Sequence record: PP359570
Length of the DNA: 64,000 bases
DNA from: Escherichia phage ALITA
Reading direction: 5' to 3' (one strand)
The notes beneath the pieces are model-generated. The model worked only from the letters and a program-made list of their open reading frames with translations, had not been told where the DNA came from and searched no databases. The translations under genes and the position numbers were made by a program. Positions 24,724 through 36,738 of the stretch are shown in pieces (the first letter of the stretch is position 1; every line of letters starts with the position of its first letter).

Positions 24724-24840
24724 TTAATGAGAATCATTTTCGTTTGTAAATGAGAATCATTATCATTTAACTATGTAAGTGATAATCATTCTCAGTAAGA
24801 GAATGAGAATCATTAGCAAATGAGAATTTTTCTCATTTAC
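24724..24840. promoter_or_regulatory. cluster of five Fur-box-like palindromic sites (AATGAGAATCATT family)
   Basis: AATGAGAATCATT x3, GTGATAATCATTCTC, and perfect palindrome AAATGAGAA-TTT-TTCTCATTT; core matches part of the GATAATGATAATCATTATC consensus. Confidence 0.45.
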
Positions 24841-25098
24841 AGAATAACGCGCAGGGGCGGTGTTTGTCTCGCGCTCCCGTGTCCCCTCGCCATACAATAA
24901 GAATAGCATAACCAATAACAAAAGCAAGCGATTATTTTTATCTTTACATTTCTTTACAAATTTATTTTAGACGAGCTACCGGCGATCAACCTTCCAACCA
25001 GTGCCCCCTGGTATGTTAGCCCCGCCTTTACGCCGTGGGGTGGCGTTTCCTCTTCTGTATGTAAAACAGTATAAGCCCGATCCCTGGGCTTGTCAAGA

Positions 25099-25365
25099 TT
25101 ATTTTTTGTTTTCTTGCCAGGATAGGACACCTAACCAAAAATACATGTCGCCCCGCGCCCCTGGTGGGATCTTGCTTTCCCCGCCGCCACTGCAAGCCCA
25201 TAAATAACCATCAGCGAACGGATCAAAGTGATCTATCTCTTCCACCTTATGATCGCCCAGGTTGAGAACGGTTTCAACCTTTAAGCCCGTTGCGCTTGCT
25301 ACCTGGTGCACCGTGCCGCCTTGCCAGCCCAGTGAGTGCATGAGATGTAAAGAAGTATTTGTCAT
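25099..25365 (-). CDS. hypothetical protein in GC-rich segment (uncertain)
   Basis: 88-aa ORF with GC-rich, enteric-like codon usage unlike flanking phage DNA; weak RBS; 3' end overlaps a consensus TTGACA-17-TATACT promoter on the same strand. Confidence 0.25.
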   Translation of the reverse strand: MTNTSLHLMHSLGWQGGTVHQVASATGLKVETVLNLGDHKVEEIDHFDPFADGYLWACSGGGESKIPPGARGDMYFWLGVLSWQENKK

Positions 25366-25737
25366 GGTATCGCCCTTTCTTTGTTGTGCGCCCTGGTTGG
25401 CGCGGTAGAAAGATGATAGCCGTTTCCTTCATATATAGCAAGCAAAAAAGAAATGAAAAAAAGATTAAAAAATGGTTGACGTTCCTCACCTGGTAGCGTA
25501 GTATTCATCTTGTCGAGGGGGGCAAGACACAACGACAATAAACAATAGGCGGGTGCAATGCAAGACGGGCAAAGGTGAGGATCTCCACAATCCACCGTCA
25601 CAATAACATTACTTATAAAAGGTTGATAACGATGATCAAGAAAGAAAATAGCTTGACGGTTGGAACGATTAACGCTATCATTCTTGCCGTTCCATTTTGG
25701 ATTGTAGTTGCGGTTATTATTTTCTAAAAAAATATTC

Positions 25738-25793
25738 TTGACAACGTTTTTTAATCTGATAAGATGTATCACATAGGGCGGCAATAGTGCCGC
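25738..25793 (+). promoter_or_regulatory. promoter plus 5' stem-loop cassette (PeSL-like) #1
   Basis: TTGACA, 16-nt spacer, TAAGAT, then CACATAGG-GCGGCA-ATAG-TGCCGC hairpin about 25 nt before the ATG. Confidence 0.6.
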
Positions 25794-25817
25794 TCATAAC
25801 AGAAGAGAGAAATAATC

Positions 25818-26090
25818 ATGGCATCATATAGCGCATCAATGATTGTAAAGGGTATCACTGGTAAACCTATGCGCGGTGGCGGATCTTTCGCTAACATCAA
25901 TATTGATGGACGTTTATCCCTGGACGCAGCGATCACAGTGGCACGGGAAACATTTAAAAAAGAATGTAATTTCAATAAACAAGATTATCTCGGTTTTGCT
26001 ATTGAAAAAACCGCGCGCTTTGTGGATTATAAAAGCCCGAAAATGATCGACACTACACTAAAAGCGCAAGATGTAGCGTTTTTGCTTTAA
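25818..26090 (+). CDS. hypothetical protein
   Basis: 90-aa ORF behind cassette #1. Confidence 0.5.
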   Translation: MASYSASMIVKGITGKPMRGGGSFANINIDGRLSLDAAITVARETFKKECNFNKQDYLGFAIEKTARFVDYKSPKMIDTTLKAQDVAFLL

Positions 26091-26093
26091 GAC

Positions 26094-26154
26094 TTGACAC
26101 TGAAAAATAATTTGATAATATATACCACATAAGGCGGGGAAATGGTTTCCCGCC
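26094..26154 (+). promoter_or_regulatory. PeSL-like cassette #2
   Basis: TTGACA-16-TAATAT then GGCGGGGAAATGGTTTCCCGCC hairpin. Confidence 0.6.
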
Positions 26155-26176
26155 AAATCAAAGAAAGGGTAATGCA

Positions 26177-26539
26177 ATGAGCAAGCAAATCAATACTATC
26201 ATGTTTAATCTGGTATCTTTCCGCGATGACGTGAAAAACCTTTCGCGTGATGCAGTGGATGCACGGATCGAAAGCTATCGCACACAGATCGCAACGTTAC
26301 CGCTGAAACGTGATCAACATGCCGCTAATATGATGCTTGATGCTATGATTAAAAAGATGATTCAATGTGATCTTACCCTGGCTTATGAATATGCTGGCGA
26401 TCTCTTTGTAACATATAGCAAGCCCGTTCCAGGTATGAGCACCACGGAAGAATTGCATGCCTTAAATCTGCGACAAGATGCATGGGATAACATGCGCCGT
26501 GTTATGGTATGGGTAGAAAGCGGTAAAATTTACGAATAA
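26177..26539 (+). CDS. hypothetical protein
   Basis: 120-aa ORF. Confidence 0.5.
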   Translation: MSKQINTIMFNLVSFRDDVKNLSRDAVDARIESYRTQIATLPLKRDQHAANMMLDAMIKKMIQCDLTLAYEYAGDLFVTYSKPVPGMSTTEELHALNLRQDAWDNMRRVMVWVESGKIYE

Positions 26540-26545
26540 AAACGG

Positions 26546-26598
26546 TTGACATTGCACTAAAACCTGATAAGCTATCTTAAAGCGGGAATAGTTCCCGC
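26546..26598 (+). promoter_or_regulatory. PeSL-like cassette #3
   Basis: TTGACA-16-TAAGCT then GCGGGAA-TAG-TTCCCGC hairpin. Confidence 0.55.
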
Positions 26599-26617
26599 TT
26601 ACATAGGATAAAACTTT

Positions 26618-26764
26618 ATGAAACAATATGTAATGAGTATTCACACCAAAAACGGCGCTACTGTTACGACTCCGGCACGGTTTGCACTTGTAAACCGTTG
26701 CAAGAGACTAAAACGAGAGCTAAAAAACAACCGTGCAACGGGCTTTAAACGCTGGGGAGGATAA
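26618..26764 (+). CDS. hypothetical small basic protein (48 aa)
   Basis: Unlisted ORF MKQYVMSIHTK... directly behind cassette #3. Confidence 0.4.
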   Translation: MKQYVMSIHTKNGATVTTPARFALVNRCKRLKRELKNNRATGFKRWGG

Positions 26765-34628: not shown

Positions 34629-34647
34629 TTGATATAGGAATCATACC

Positions 34648-34881
34648 ATGATCGAACAAATTAAAAGCACTACACCAAATGTTAACGGCAATGTTTCACA
34701 CTTTATCGGTGATAATGAAAGGGGCACACCATACGCCGCCGTAACCGTGCAACCTAATGGCGATTATTGGTTTACCGTGTACGGATCATACTCTTTCGGA
34801 CGCCCGGCACATGATAAGATCTTGCAAGCGGTTAAACCTGCGGGGAAGAATATCACAGCAGAAAAATTTTATAAAAAATAG
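34648..34881 (+). CDS. hypothetical protein
   Basis: 77-aa ORF. Confidence 0.5.
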   Translation: MIEQIKSTTPNVNGNVSHFIGDNERGTPYAAVTVQPNGDYWFTVYGSYSFGRPAHDKILQAVKPAGKNITAEKFYKK

Positions 34882-34956
34882 CTTGCTTTATTTCTTCTGT
34901 TAACTTATAGTTATCGCGTAGGGCAAACAATTTTAAACGGTAAACGAGGAATCACC

Positions 34957-35340
34957 ATGAGCAATATCATCAACCTGGCAGCGACTGTAAACGGTAAAGA
35001 CTTTAACGGCGCTGTAGACCGTGATCCTATGTGGTGCTTATCAGTGTTTAAAGGCGATCTGGTTGAAGTTAGAACAACCGAAGGTTATAGCGACGATTAT
35101 AAATGCGAGATTCATTTACACAACTGGTACACGGGTAAAACTTATGCGCTGAATCACGCGTTTATCGGGAAAATTGAATATCGCGAGATGATCGACGAAG
35201 AAACGGGGCAAGATTTTAGCGAGCATGTTTATATTCGTTCAGAAACATTAGCCGAACGTTTGATCGAGAAAATGAAAGCAAAAAATAAAATTAATTTATC
35301 TCATTGGATTGATATAACAAACGATCCGGCTTATAAGTAA
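34957..35340 (+). CDS. hypothetical protein
   Basis: 127-aa ORF; upstream leader looks like a decayed cassette (CGCGTAGGGCAAAC). Confidence 0.5.
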   Translation: MSNIINLAATVNGKDFNGAVDRDPMWCLSVFKGDLVEVRTTEGYSDDYKCEIHLHNWYTGKTYALNHAFIGKIEYREMIDEETGQDFSEHVYIRSETLAERLIEKMKAKNKINLSHWIDITNDPAYK

Positions 35341-35353
35341 ATAACATTTCACA

Positions 35354-35383
35354 CCAGGGCGCACAAAGCGCCCTTTCTTTTTA
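35354..35383 (+). terminator. rho-independent terminator (AGGGCGC-ACAAA-GCGCCCT plus T-run)
   Basis: GC hairpin followed by TTCTTTTT. Confidence 0.6.
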
Positions 35384-35587
35384 CCTAAATAAAGATGATA
35401 GCTTTTACCTATCAAAAACGTTCACCGAAAAAAGTGAATAGATCGCGGTATCGAACTAATCAAGCAACAGATGAACAACCATACCATGAAGGTCATAAGG
35501 CGCTTACAACGTGTTTTAGACCGCTTATTTTTAATTTCTTCATGTAACTATCTGGCAAAAACAGCCTTTTTCTTGTCTTTCCTCTTA

Positions 35588-35657
35588 AATGATAATCATT
35601 CTTATTTATAGCTGATTATTTATGCAATTTATTGCATAATGCAATAATGATAATCAT
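35588..35657. promoter_or_regulatory. two Fur-box-like sites (AATGATAATCATT) flanking an ATGCAAT-TT-ATTGCAT palindrome
   Basis: Exact 13-mer AATGATAATCATT at about 35588-35600 and 35645-35657. Confidence 0.45.
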
Positions 35658-35689
35658 TCCTAACTTAAGACCATCTAACCTATAAAATA

Positions 35690-35960
35690 ATAAGTTATCT
35701 AACTAAATTAAAACTAATTATCTCACTTTTATTTATAACTTACTGTTACTATCTCATTGATAACCTTATATTAAACAACAATAACTAATATAAATCATTA
35801 CTAAGCTAAATATAATCTATCTAACCCTTAAAACTACAATTATAATCTATCTAATTGTTGCACAAAGTAACTATTAAATTGTTAGTAACATTACTAAATA
35901 ATTCACATCCTATCTATTTATGATCTAATCTTTACCTTTCTATCTATTACCTAAATAACC
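35690..35960. repeat. G-depleted tract with reiterated ATCTA / TATCTA motifs
   Basis: About 270 bp with only ~5% G on the plus strand and 10 or more ATCTA-type repeats; non-coding. Confidence 0.5.
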
Positions 35961-36517
35961 ATTTCATACAGTAATTATTCCATATGGTAATCATTTCATA
36001 CAATAATTATAACAAGAAATATAATTCGCAAGCGTATCATTAGCAGCCTATGCCGGACACATAGGCGGCTAATAATAACGCAACTACACACCCCACATAA
36101 TAACCATCAACGATGGTTATTATTTGTGTTTATGTAGCTTGCAACAATTGCAAGCGCAACAATATACATGGTATATTGTATTCCCTTACATTGTTGCGGT
36201 GCGTTATTATTAGCTAATGTTTAGAACATTGGCTATAATATAAGCTGCATATAATAAACTATGCAATAATAAACATGGTGAATAATGACACCGATGATCA
36301 TAATGCGCCACCCTCCAGGGGGCGCTATGTAAACACAAAGAAATCTTTCTTGTCAAGAAAATATTGCCACTATTGCGCAAAATTATTTTTATCTGAATAG
36401 ATGATTTTTCATACTATTGCCCCTATAACATACCTCATTTGTTGAGCCTACTTTCTTAAAAGCGCAATAAATCAGAATTATCTTGATTTTTAGGGCGTTT
36501 TATAGTACAGAAAGTAT

Positions 36518-36536
36518 GCAAATGATAATCATTATC
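36518..36536. promoter_or_regulatory. near-consensus Fur-box-like 19-mer
   Basis: GCAAATGATAATCATTATC matches the consensus GATAATGATAATCATTATC at 17 of 19 positions (16 consecutive). Confidence 0.5.
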
Positions 36537-36702
36537 AGCTATCTTCCACGGGTAGCACTATTTCACGCCAGATCATTTCATTTGGCAAGGTGTATATAGA
36601 TGTTTAGACTTGCCAAGCCATTGATTTACTTAGAATTTATCTGTTTTGTTGTGAGTAATACCTTTCTTACTCAGAAAATAATCAAAAGTCTTATAAGTCA
36701 TT

Positions 36703-36738
36703 GAATGATAATACAAATGATAATTATTCTCATTGATA
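36703..36738. promoter_or_regulatory. tandem degenerate Fur-box-like sites
   Basis: GAATGATAATACAAATGATAATTATTCTCATTGATA. Confidence 0.35.

Follow-up and report, generated by a model that had tools for sequence, protein, structure and literature searches.

This article concerns a stretch of 64,000 nucleotides from Escherichia phage ALITA (sequence record PP359570), which we call the window, and within it a set of short palindromic sites that resemble the DNA boxes of Fur, the iron-responsive regulator of the bacterial host. The sites lie in two pieces of untranslated DNA that bracket a block of small phage genes. On the left is an 810-bp gap between the convergent genes gp223 (plus strand, ending at 24287) and gp224 (minus strand, 25099-25365); on the right is a 1.5-kb gap, 35548-37036, that holds no open reading frame (ORF). 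The base composition of the gaps is 31-33% G+C. The 13.5 kb around the boxes is 95-96.5% identical to the Justusliebigvirus phages inny, Paula, Nernie and VEcB (about 96% for inny and Paula), and by its sequence the window belongs to Justusliebigvirus, the phi92-like E. coli myoviruses of the subfamily Stephanstirmvirinae. The boxes exist, are non-random, are conserved in position and are written in the words of a Fur operator. That they have been selected because host Fur binds them is a reading towards which we lean, if only slightly. An earlier note on this DNA, made from the letters alone, had listed Fur-like sites at 24724-24840, around 35588 and 35645, at 36518-36536 and at 36703-36738, and all of them are present (Table 1).

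The enterobacterial Fur site is written in three equivalent forms, the 19-mer GATAATGATAATCATTATC, the 7-1-7 form TGATAATnATTATCA and the 9-1-9 form AATGATAATnATTATCATT (PMC10665472, PMC3528687). The left array consists of up to five sites spaced 17-29 bp apart. Its innermost member, L5, keeps the 15-bp 7-1-7 spacing of the other boxes with one mismatch, and it occupies the slot in which other genera have their best-conserved box. In three related loci (L001, L002 and L037; three-digit numbers denote loci, not boxes) a 1-nt deletion turns the 7-1-7 of L5 into a 14-bp 7-0-7. On the right, module R1 (35585-35661) comes directly after the last gene of the block and its terminator, some 800 bp ahead of a direct terminal repeat (DTR) in which the two remaining sites are found. 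The palindrome that sits between the two R1 boxes is possibly a second operator. R2 is a perfect TGATAATnATTATCA, with its 7-1-7 core TGATAATCATTATCA at 36523-36537. The tandem pair R3 has a best 19-mer of 14/19 and 12.8 bits, and a 7-1-7 core at 36718-36732 with one mismatch; L5 and R3 score lower than the other boxes, at 7.0-12.8 bits.

Table 1. Boxes and associated features of the two gaps and the gene block between them. Fractions are matches to the 19-mer Fur consensus; bits are scores on the Fur matrix described in the text.
Feature	Position	Strand	Details
L1	24723-24741		GTTAATGAGAATCATTTTC; 16/19; 21.8 bits
L2	24746-24764 (entry to 24768)		16/19; 21.0 bits; 24748-24768 is AAATGAGAATCATTATCATTT
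L3	24775-24793		GTAAGTGATAATCATTCTC; 15/19; 17.7 bits
L4	24799-24817		GAGAATGAGAATCATTAGC; 16/19; 17.8 bits
L5, weaker	24816-24840		palindrome AAATGAGAATTTTTCTCATTT at 24819-24839, that is AAATGAGAA-TTT-TTCTCATTT; 13/19; 10.4 bits
R1a	35585-35603		exact AATGATAATCATT at 35588-35600; 18.0 bits
Palindrome TTATGCAATTTATTGCATAA	35620-35639		TTATGCAAT-TT-ATTGCATAA; perfect; exactly between R1a and R1b
R1b	35643-35661		exact AATGATAATCATT at 35646-35658; 15.9 bits
R2, in DTR	36518-36536 (entry to 36537)		GCAAATGATAATCATTATCA; 17/19; 22.1 bits
R3, in DTR, tandem pair	36703-36738		hexamer array GAATGATAAT-ACAAAT-GATAAT-T-ATTCTC-ATTGAT
Three AT-rich direct repeats, about 70 bp each	24487-24705		repeat search; adjoin the left cluster on its outer side
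Conserved untranslated module	24843-25065	+	about 250 nt, to 25100; attached to the left boxes; 26 loci
P2(-), weaker	~24927-24900	-	minus-strand promoter in the module
Terminator-like hairpin and U-tract	~25010-25046	+	end of the module
P1(-)	25096-25068	-	TTGACA-N17-TATACT, 11/12; spacer is the GC hairpin terminating gp224
Right-arm block ('island')	25818..35547	+	small genes equivalent to phi92 gp225-gp248; ORFs and annotation
Eight sigma-70 promoters	27664-33712	+	TTGACA-N16/17-TATAAT, 11-12/12 match, within 6 kb
Equivalent of the 343-bp DTR	36445-36787		phi92 annotation and alignment; a single collapsed copy in the window

The density of these sites was said in the earlier note to be unlikely by chance even in AT-rich DNA, and on this point it was right. 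With at most one mismatch, AATGANAATCATT occurs 16 times in the window where 1.33 matches are expected, and none of 100 shuffles reached 16. Nine positions match GATAATGATAATCATTATC at 15 or more of its 19 bases, where 200 dinucleotide-shuffled versions of the window give 0.46; within the two AT-rich gaps there are four and two such positions, against 0.004-0.04 in local dinucleotide shuffles. The note had also proposed a comparison with a Fur position weight matrix (PWM). Ours was built from ten natural Gram-negative iron boxes in PMC10665472, leaving out the idealised consensus, and 12 window positions score 14 bits or more on it (0.71 in shuffles). Eight phage boxes score 15.9-22.1 bits, at 14-17/19, while the training sites themselves range from 13.7 to 21.6 bits. 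Six of the eight positions at or above 15.9 bits fall within the 2.3 kb of noncoding gaps (binomial 6e-8). An enrichment of 9-mers that knows nothing of Fur also brings sub-words of the boxes (AATGATAAT, AATGAGAAT, GATAATCAT and TGATAATCA) to the top, and these are almost absent from the other 61.7 kb. Across the complete genome of VEcB, 11 sites reach 15 bits, and 8 of them are in the two gaps.

The identity of the motif can be read from the phage sites as a group. The consensus of 58 distinct sites is aAAATGA(G/T)AAT-S-ATT(C/A)TCATTTt, with a symmetry centre identical to that of the 9-1-9 form AATGATAATnATTATCATT. The bases at +/-8 and +/-9, which played no part in selecting the sites, are A or T at 81-86%, matching the Yersinia 9-1-9 Fur box AATGATAATNATTATCATT (PMC3528687). 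The DTR sites have GATAAT, the T variant and the ideal form for Fur; among the phage sites as a whole the G variant is in the majority. We also looked for exact copies of the palindrome AATGAGAATCATTCTCATT in 185,579 species genomes and found it on at least 120 bacterial contigs. Among 43 parsed loci it is intergenic in 37, and a gene starts no more than 350 nt away in 33. Pfam assignments for 17 full-length neighbours include two FeoB proteins, an FTR1 iron permease, three TonB-dependent receptors and two Fe3+-type binding proteins, together with an ABC ATPase, a PF00756 esterase, a flavin oxidoreductase and a FUR-family regulator; three more FeoB proteins and a second FTR1 downstream of the palindrome were recognised by their N termini. 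Because this word precedes iron-uptake and FUR genes in bacteria, the phage consensus reads as a working Fur operator word.

Consensus match, a PWM drawn from the literature, the 7-1-7/9-1-9 register and the unselected flanking bases together identify the motif in silico as a Fur-type operator. Two other regulators with similar sites were considered and set aside. The RcsAB box (TAAGAAT-ATTCTTA; PMC3528687) is a 14-bp 7-0-7 site, whereas the phage boxes are 15-bp 7-1-7 sites and the DTR halves read TGATAAT; spacing of the RcsAB kind is seen only in the L5 indel variant of some relatives. A Zur box is rejected on its spacing and on the sequence of the inner half-site. Enterobacterial Fur boxes and the phage sites share sequence, register, dyad symmetry and the character of a hexamer array. 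They differ in where they are found: the phage sites, up to five in an array, lie not over the promoter of an iron-related gene but in those parts of a virulent phage genome that are terminal or at a boundary and are not translated. Pfam and PHROGs searches of the genes next to the boxes returned NADAR, CapR/T5orf172, Gp30.8-like and unknown proteins, and no iron-related gene.

The earlier note described the boxes as bracketing an island. The geometry is real and is kept across two subfamilies, but the right-hand sites mark a terminus, being in the DTR and the gap before it, and not the edge of an island. In phi92 the same block is the last 11.6 kb or so before the right physical end. The phi92 record has 343-bp direct terminal repeats annotated at both ends, alignment maps this repeat onto window 36445-36787, and an independent record, that of PHB05, stops at window 36444. 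The repeat accordingly forms both physical ends of the DNA in the virion, so that R2 and R3 are present at each. With the right-hand boxes in or just before the DTR, the block is the right-terminal arm, about 8%, of a linear genome with 343-bp terminal repeats, and not an insertion.

The transcription signals of the arm tell us how its genes are likely to be read. Each small gene in 27664-33712 has its own promoter and terminator, and many terminators are present in the Paula record; such a density of promoters and terminators is what marks genes transcribed by the host RNA polymerase in its unmodified form. In the 10 kb after the repeat (37-47 kb) there is only one promoter of the TTGACA-N16/17-TATAAT 11-12/12 type. 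The earlier note had attached the label of early block to the genes from 37.0 kb; with eight such promoters against one in 10 kb, the label fits the island better. A promoter scan of 35.3-37.2 kb found no strong sigma-70 promoter, and nine weak matches compared with 12.2 in shuffles. As the strong early promoters lie inside the island and none lies at 35.3-37.2 kb, Fur gating of transcription into the 37.0-kb block has no anatomical support.

The boxes are held in place over long evolutionary distances. Attached to the left array is a conserved untranslated module, of which we assembled 26 copies, drawing on seven relatives with annotation and on a scan of IMG/VR for exact patterns. In 23 of the 26 the same slot holds a box that matches at 14/19 or better. 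Stephanstirmvirinae have two to five boxes here; Vequintavirinae have TTGAATGA(G/T)AATCATTCTCATTTGC where the last left box belongs, and its distance from TCTTTACAAA of the module is constant at -125. Boxes keep their slots in Phapecoctavirus, Certrevirus, Mydovirus and Klebsiella relatives, so that conservation of position spans the two subfamilies and phages of Escherichia, Klebsiella, Cronobacter, Pectobacterium and Salmonella. In phi92, L028 and L037 L1 has been exchanged as a block for ...ATGATAATCATTCTCATTT, which is still a box and a better one, the pattern of turnover under selection for the motif. On the right, the R1, R2 and R3 slots are all boxed in phAPEC8 and ZCKP1 (Phapecoctavirus) and in Klebsiella phage FKP3, even though the noncoding DNA of phAPEC8 and ZCKP1 is largely unalignable with the window. 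The box-palindrome-box layout of R1 and its 58-bp spacing are kept in all three. R2 in phi92 scores 23.0 bits and lies 74 bp from the left end, with a variant in phAPEC8 and ZCKP1, and the R3 block CATAAGTCATTG..AATGATAATTATTCTCAT..TGATATTTG shows hardly any variation in phAPEC8, ZCKP1 and FKP3. Mydovirus KNP2 has boxes in a 1.3-kb gap free of ORFs, about 10 kb from its boundary module.

The module itself is a second result. Reading rightwards it is made up of the boxes, a half-box CAGAATAAC (C(A/T)GAATGAC), a GC-rich segment, a weak minus-strand promoter, TCTTTACA..TCTTTACAAA and a structured segment. The part at 24941-25065 is about 85% identical as far out as the Klebsiella, Cronobacter, Pectobacterium and Erwinia phages of the Vequintavirinae. 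The hairpin at its end has four G.U pairs on the plus strand (A.C on the minus strand) and compensatory changes, and reads as a plus-strand terminator; the segment next to it is the only one in which RNAalifold found strand-specific structure, the GC-rich segment B yielding nothing convincing on either strand. Elsewhere in 24843-25100 a further hairpin, ACCAG/CUGGU, covaries. Rfam returned nothing at the gathering threshold in either gap, only microRNA-like chance matches below it, and ARAGORN saw no tRNA-like element there either. P1(-) stands alone between 10 and 49 kb: no other minus-strand promoter there matches at 11/12 or better. Its hexamers are conserved across genera and the hairpin in its spacer covaries. 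It points to the left, away from the early block, and faces first the box array and then the 70-bp repeats of 24487-24705. We regard the module as a candidate for a new phage noncoding RNA or an origin-like element.

The same motif turned up in an unexpected place. An IMG/VR scan for AATGATAATCATTATCA returned more than 120 loci, and 11 of the 79 that we examined have at least three strong sites within 400 bp. In the T5-like Salmonella phage SP01 (L049, 4870-5070) seven units, each a box plus TTTAAAAAGCGGAA, stand beside DnaA boxes, in the terminal repeat that is annotated in Spc35 as first-step-transfer DNA; the Spc35 array is at 8940-9075 of HQ406778.1 (L158). In T5 itself (AY587007.1, L159) the features annotated as 'direct repeat C copies 1-4' and 'palindromes E-I', at 9468-9640, are these boxes. 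The sites at 9574 and 9615 score 18.8 and 20.8 bits, and palindrome G (9576-9596) is, by direct comparison, identical over 21 nucleotides to window 24748-24768, AAATGAGAATCATTATCATTT. These T5 coordinates belong to Repeat Region 3, which is untranslated and located at the injection stop signal, and both the shear point of first-step transfer (about 9618) and the 7.9% nick (9661-9668) are in or beside the array. The boundary array of phi92 lies 11.55-11.62 kb, or 7.77-7.82%, from the right end, and the T5 array at 7.78-7.92%.

T5 Repeat Region 3 and the phi92-type boundary thus have in common the motif, untranslated and highly conserved repeats, a place at the inner boundary of a terminal segment of early genes read by host RNA polymerase, a fractional position of about 7.8-7.9%, and an array followed by a further array of direct repeats. 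They differ in that the T5 array lies inside a 10-kb terminal repeat and has DnaA boxes, whereas the phi92-type repeat is 343 bp, its array is outside the repeat and DnaA boxes are lacking. In the window gaps there is no TTWTNCACA and nothing within one mismatch of TTATCCACA, and a composite DnaA/Fur element of the T5-like kind was set aside for this reason. T5 also has A1, A2 and Dmp, which have no homologues in the phi92-type group: tblastn with 17 ORFs of the T5 terminal repeat, these three among them, gave no significant match in the window, VEcB or KNP2, and a shared T5 protein as the binder was rejected on that result. A preprint on the T5 injection-stop region (10.1101/866236) discusses the DnaA boxes and never mentions Fur or iron; according to it, the mechanism of the 7.9% pause is still unexplained and A2 is a DNA-binding dimer of unknown target.

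A motif common to two unrelated virulent phages of the same hosts, with no evident shared binder, points to a host factor rather than a phage factor as its reader. The earlier note had offered host Fur or a phage repressor with a Fur-like site. The Fur-type operator stands, and host Fur is the better reading of who binds it, because we found no phage Fur or Zur and because the identical motif occurs in T5-like phages that share no pre-early protein with this group. The search for such a protein was by tblastn over the full genomes of VEcB and KNP2, with E. coli Fur and Zur as queries; it gave no Fur or Zur homologue at E < 0.1, and a phage-encoded Fur or Zur was rejected. Occupancy of the phage boxes by Fur in vivo is something we infer from these comparisons.

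Several observations weigh against Fur as the reason for the boxes. About half of the half-sites have G at +/-4 where the Fur consensus has T, the sole systematic departure from it; both this G variant (GAGAAT) and the C variant (ATTCTC) are among the natural iron boxes of PMC10665472, a list that includes GATAATGAGAATCATTATT, and TGTAATGATAACCATTCTC is also among natural boxes in the literature. The centre of L5 tolerates a 1-nt indel, the T-run being one shorter in inny, Paula and the IMG/VR locus L037, and this copy may be under weaker or different constraint. Three of the 26 module loci have no box. In one of them, the IMG/VR locus L033, the slot is filled by an imperfect palindrome, GTTAGTCAC-G-GTGAGTAAC, a swap that suggests replacement of one operator by another, and L038, which like L033 is only distantly related, also has no Fur-like box there. 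Classical repression by Fur needs overlap with a promoter, and at none of the boxes is there a convincing overlap with a conserved sigma-70 -35/-10 pair. Two candidates were seen, neither of them conserved: in Vequintavirinae a plus-strand TTGAAT-N18-CAGAAT spans the last left box, with a weak -10 that has lost A-11 in some genera, and TTGAAT-N18-TATTCT, over R3, is lost in phAPEC8; with no convincing overlap, classical occlusion of promoters by the boxes is not supported. Nor is it obvious what a phage would gain from repression in iron-replete cells, the usual condition in the laboratory and one of good growth. A phage-encoded binder that shows no detectable homology may also exist. Finally, in the searchable literature we found no paper that links Fur boxes with lytic phages, with Vequintavirinae or with T5 first-step transfer; to judge from that literature, arrays of conserved Fur operators in DNA of virulent phages that is untranslated and lies at a terminus or boundary are undescribed so far.

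What else could the boxes be? That they are chance matches in AT-rich noncoding DNA is an idea to which we give practically no credence. The gaps are indeed poor in G+C, and GAT/AAT codons can mimic Fur hexamers: a perfect T5 box at 232-246, which we did not count as it may be a codon artefact, lies inside dmp and encodes EDDNDYQF, and three good window sites (12209, 48992 and 60184), like one at 30595 in KNP2, were set aside as coding, the three being inside long ORFs. But the shuffles of the gaps themselves, the other tests of enrichment and the retention of box positions across genera in spite of diverged flanking DNA rule chance out. A more serious rival, although one we think doubtful, is that the boxes are operators or iterons of a phage-encoded protein, be it an early repressor, a replication initiator or an end-binder, and that their likeness to Fur sites is coincidence or mimicry. 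A neat 21-bp palindrome whose centre is G/C and whose AAA/TTT flanks are conserved would suit such a protein, as would iteron-like arrays beside direct repeats and promoters, the several small 'potential transcription regulators' annotated in phi92, the swapped palindrome of L033 and the precedent of T5 A2 as a DNA-binding dimer without a known target (10.1101/866236). Against it are the motif in unrelated T5-like phages whose pre-early proteins have no homologue here, the lack of a Fur/Zur-like phage protein, the T variant of the DTR sites, which is ideal for Fur and is not the phage-majority form, and the use of the exact word ahead of bacterial iron genes, so that host Fur would occupy the sites anyway.

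The arrays might instead be cis signals for the handling of DNA that work without any protein, or at least independently of Fur, such as a pause or stop in DNA entry like the T5 injection stop signal, a replication origin with iterons, an AT-rich unwinding region and P1/P2 as primer promoters, or a terminase or concatemer-junction signal, with the Fur likeness incidental to an AT-rich palindrome. We judge this improbable, yet the boxes are associated with the terminus, in the DTR and the gap before it; the array sits 7.8% from the right end of phi92, where the T5 stop of first-step transfer is at 7.8-7.9%; the layout, with P1(-)/P2(-), then boxes, then three 70-bp AT-rich repeats reading leftwards, is origin-like; and similar arrays abut DnaA boxes in other viral contigs (L092, L052 and the T5-likes). 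Set against this, the window gaps have no DnaA box, and the genes beside the array encode NADAR, endonuclease-like and unknown proteins, with no adjacent initiator gene of the kind an origin might have. For a packaging signal the left array is too far away, at 12 kb from the DTR. The sequence itself is conserved, beyond symmetry or AT content, and equals a working Fur operator. Nor is such a signal exclusive of Fur, which could be the host factor that makes it work. Least plausible after chance is that the boxes act as RNA hairpins in transcripts across the gaps, as elements of processing, stability or termination, a role we consider very unlikely indeed. They are palindromic, they lie in an untranslated setting that looks transcribed, downstream of P1(-)/P2(-) and upstream of the plus-strand terminator, and 24726-24842 gives weak Rfam scores of the microRNA-precursor kind, which denote merely hairpin potential. 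All copies, however, keep the sequence and not just the pairing, with no compensatory sequence-changing substitutions seen so far; many of the palindromes are imperfect, with uncompensated differences between the halves; the stems would be AU-rich, with a loop of 1-5 nt and no U-tract; and the same word is a DNA operator in bacteria.

Returning to host Fur as the binder, we can sketch how the boxes might work. They would be high-affinity host-Fur operators, and selection would maintain them at three fixed landmarks, all untranslated, in genomes of the phi92/phAPEC8/rV5 type: within the 343-bp DTR (R2 and R3), after the last gene of the right arm (R1), and as an array of one to five boxes at the inner boundary of the right-terminal 8% or so. 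When the DNA enters an iron-replete cell, pre-existing dimers of Fe2+-Fur would fill the arrays, giving complexes of host protein and DNA at the ends and at the boundary. These might then modulate the processes that cross them. One candidate is leftward transcription from P1(-) running into the array; another is transcription into or out of the terminal repeat. Early development would thus be coupled to the iron and Fur state of the host. Other options would fit the anatomy as well, among them an end-proximal nucleoprotein complex in the repeat and competition with nucleoid proteins on very AT-rich DNA. The selected function, whether roadblock, anti-silencing, landmark for DNA entry or titration, is a matter of speculation.

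Titration could come about of its own accord. The cellular pool of Fur is a few thousand molecules, and in the Fur titration assay (FURTA), a laboratory test, a Fur box on multicopy DNA lifts the repression of the Fur regulon on the chromosome; PMC3145626 is one example of the use of this principle. In formal terms a phage genome that replicates with its 10-12 or so strong boxes is such a multicopy carrier, so that, as copies accumulate, about a dozen boxes per genome would titrate Fur as an automatic by-product and derepress iron uptake. Unlike the laboratory construct, the phage has its boxes at fixed positions, which suggests more than a generic sink. We know of no phage that exploits Fur titration. 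Derepressed iron uptake would suit a phage with iron-dependent NrdAB/NrdDG, and rV5-type phages encode both NrdAB and NrdDG (PMC3606486). Fur boxes on temperate phages, at sitABCD on lambdoid coliphages (PMC6969025) and at stx1, are likewise host Fur operators on phage DNA, and they bring sequences borne by the phage into the Fur regulon of the host. In those cases a single operator lies over the promoter of iron or toxin cargo in a prophage; here there are noncoding arrays in strictly lytic phages with no iron gene.

The T5 parallel invites a bolder idea, which we put forward as a long shot. Arrays of Fur boxes may bound the first-entering right-terminal 8% or so, from the DTR boxes to the boundary array, in the manner of T5, with Fur or the arrays pausing or licensing entry, or internalisation driven by P1(-); the T5 direct repeats C and palindromes would then be Fur operators. 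If Fur did act at the first-entering segment, this would name a host factor for the T5 injection pause. In any case, the same motif at the T5 injection stop, in the same fractional position, makes testable the old question of which host interaction halts T5 at 7.9%.

If host Fur does bind the arrays, then widespread and therapeutically popular lytic coliphages of broad host range, of the phi92, phAPEC8 and rV5 types, would be reading or manipulating the iron sensing of their host through noncoding DNA. The outcome of infection would depend on iron, which is low in host tissue and high in laboratory media, and this would bear on phage therapy and on efficacy measured in vitro. It would also mean that the operators of a global host regulator mark places on the chromosome of a virulent phage, for structure or for regulation, and do not act as switches for iron cargo. 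The boundary module, with its own promoters and structured plus-strand terminator, matters in its own right as a candidate noncoding RNA or origin element.

Other features of these gaps deserve to be recorded. The direct repeats at 24487-24705 (TTATTTAAAGTTTTT...TTTTGAAAATGAAAAGTTCAA) show no change among close relatives, and past its own boxes, in the same relative position, KNP2 has three copies of an analogous repeat (CGATCGAGAACC plus A6T6 tracts). The genes to the left of the array, at 22329-24287, encode a CapR-domain/T5orf172 endonuclease-like protein of 468 aa and the NADAR-domain protein gp223 of 183 aa, which is annotated in relatives as a YbiA-like N-glycosidase. In the right-hand gap, the stretch before the repeat (35690-36010) is rich in short repeats built on TATCT(A/C) words, such as ATAATCTATCTAA, which occurs twice, 30 bp apart, and a 16-bp tandem, TAAYCATTTCATAC, lies at 35956-36010. 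Further along come a hairpin with a 12-bp stem at 36097-36123 and nested inverted repeats at 36068-36082/36200-36214 and 36141-36197. Within the DTR there is an inverted repeat at 36582-36618, TTGGCAAG-N19-CTTGCCAA, whose left arm in phi92 is TTGACA, making a promoter-like TTGACA-N17-TAGACT. The right boundary of the DTR (36770-36800) falls in a block kept across genera, AAAATCGCGTTA|AGCAC, which is likely to be the site at which ends are generated. In FKP3 (L015, PP895363.1) a stretch of about 500 bp with DTR-type boxes appears twice near the beginning of the record, at 2689-2883 and 3189-3383, 500 bp apart, probably a terminal repeat that was assembled twice.

The database scans brought up curiosities of their own. 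On viral contig L092 (1190-1470) a dense array of Fur-like boxes abuts four TGTGGATAA DnaA boxes, and on L052 (2350-2760, 17% G+C) such an array abuts repeats of the TTATCAACA type. Dense Fur-like arrays also occur on the unrelated viral contigs L040 (5700-5950) and L099 (4750-5000), for which we found no relative among isolate phage genomes, and L104 has eight perfect copies at the contig end (10760-11325). Two records deposited as 'Campylobacter phage A150/A110a', MG065639.1 and MG065689.1, are about 94% identical to the E. coli phage across the whole region; their host assignment looks doubtful, through contamination or mislabelling.

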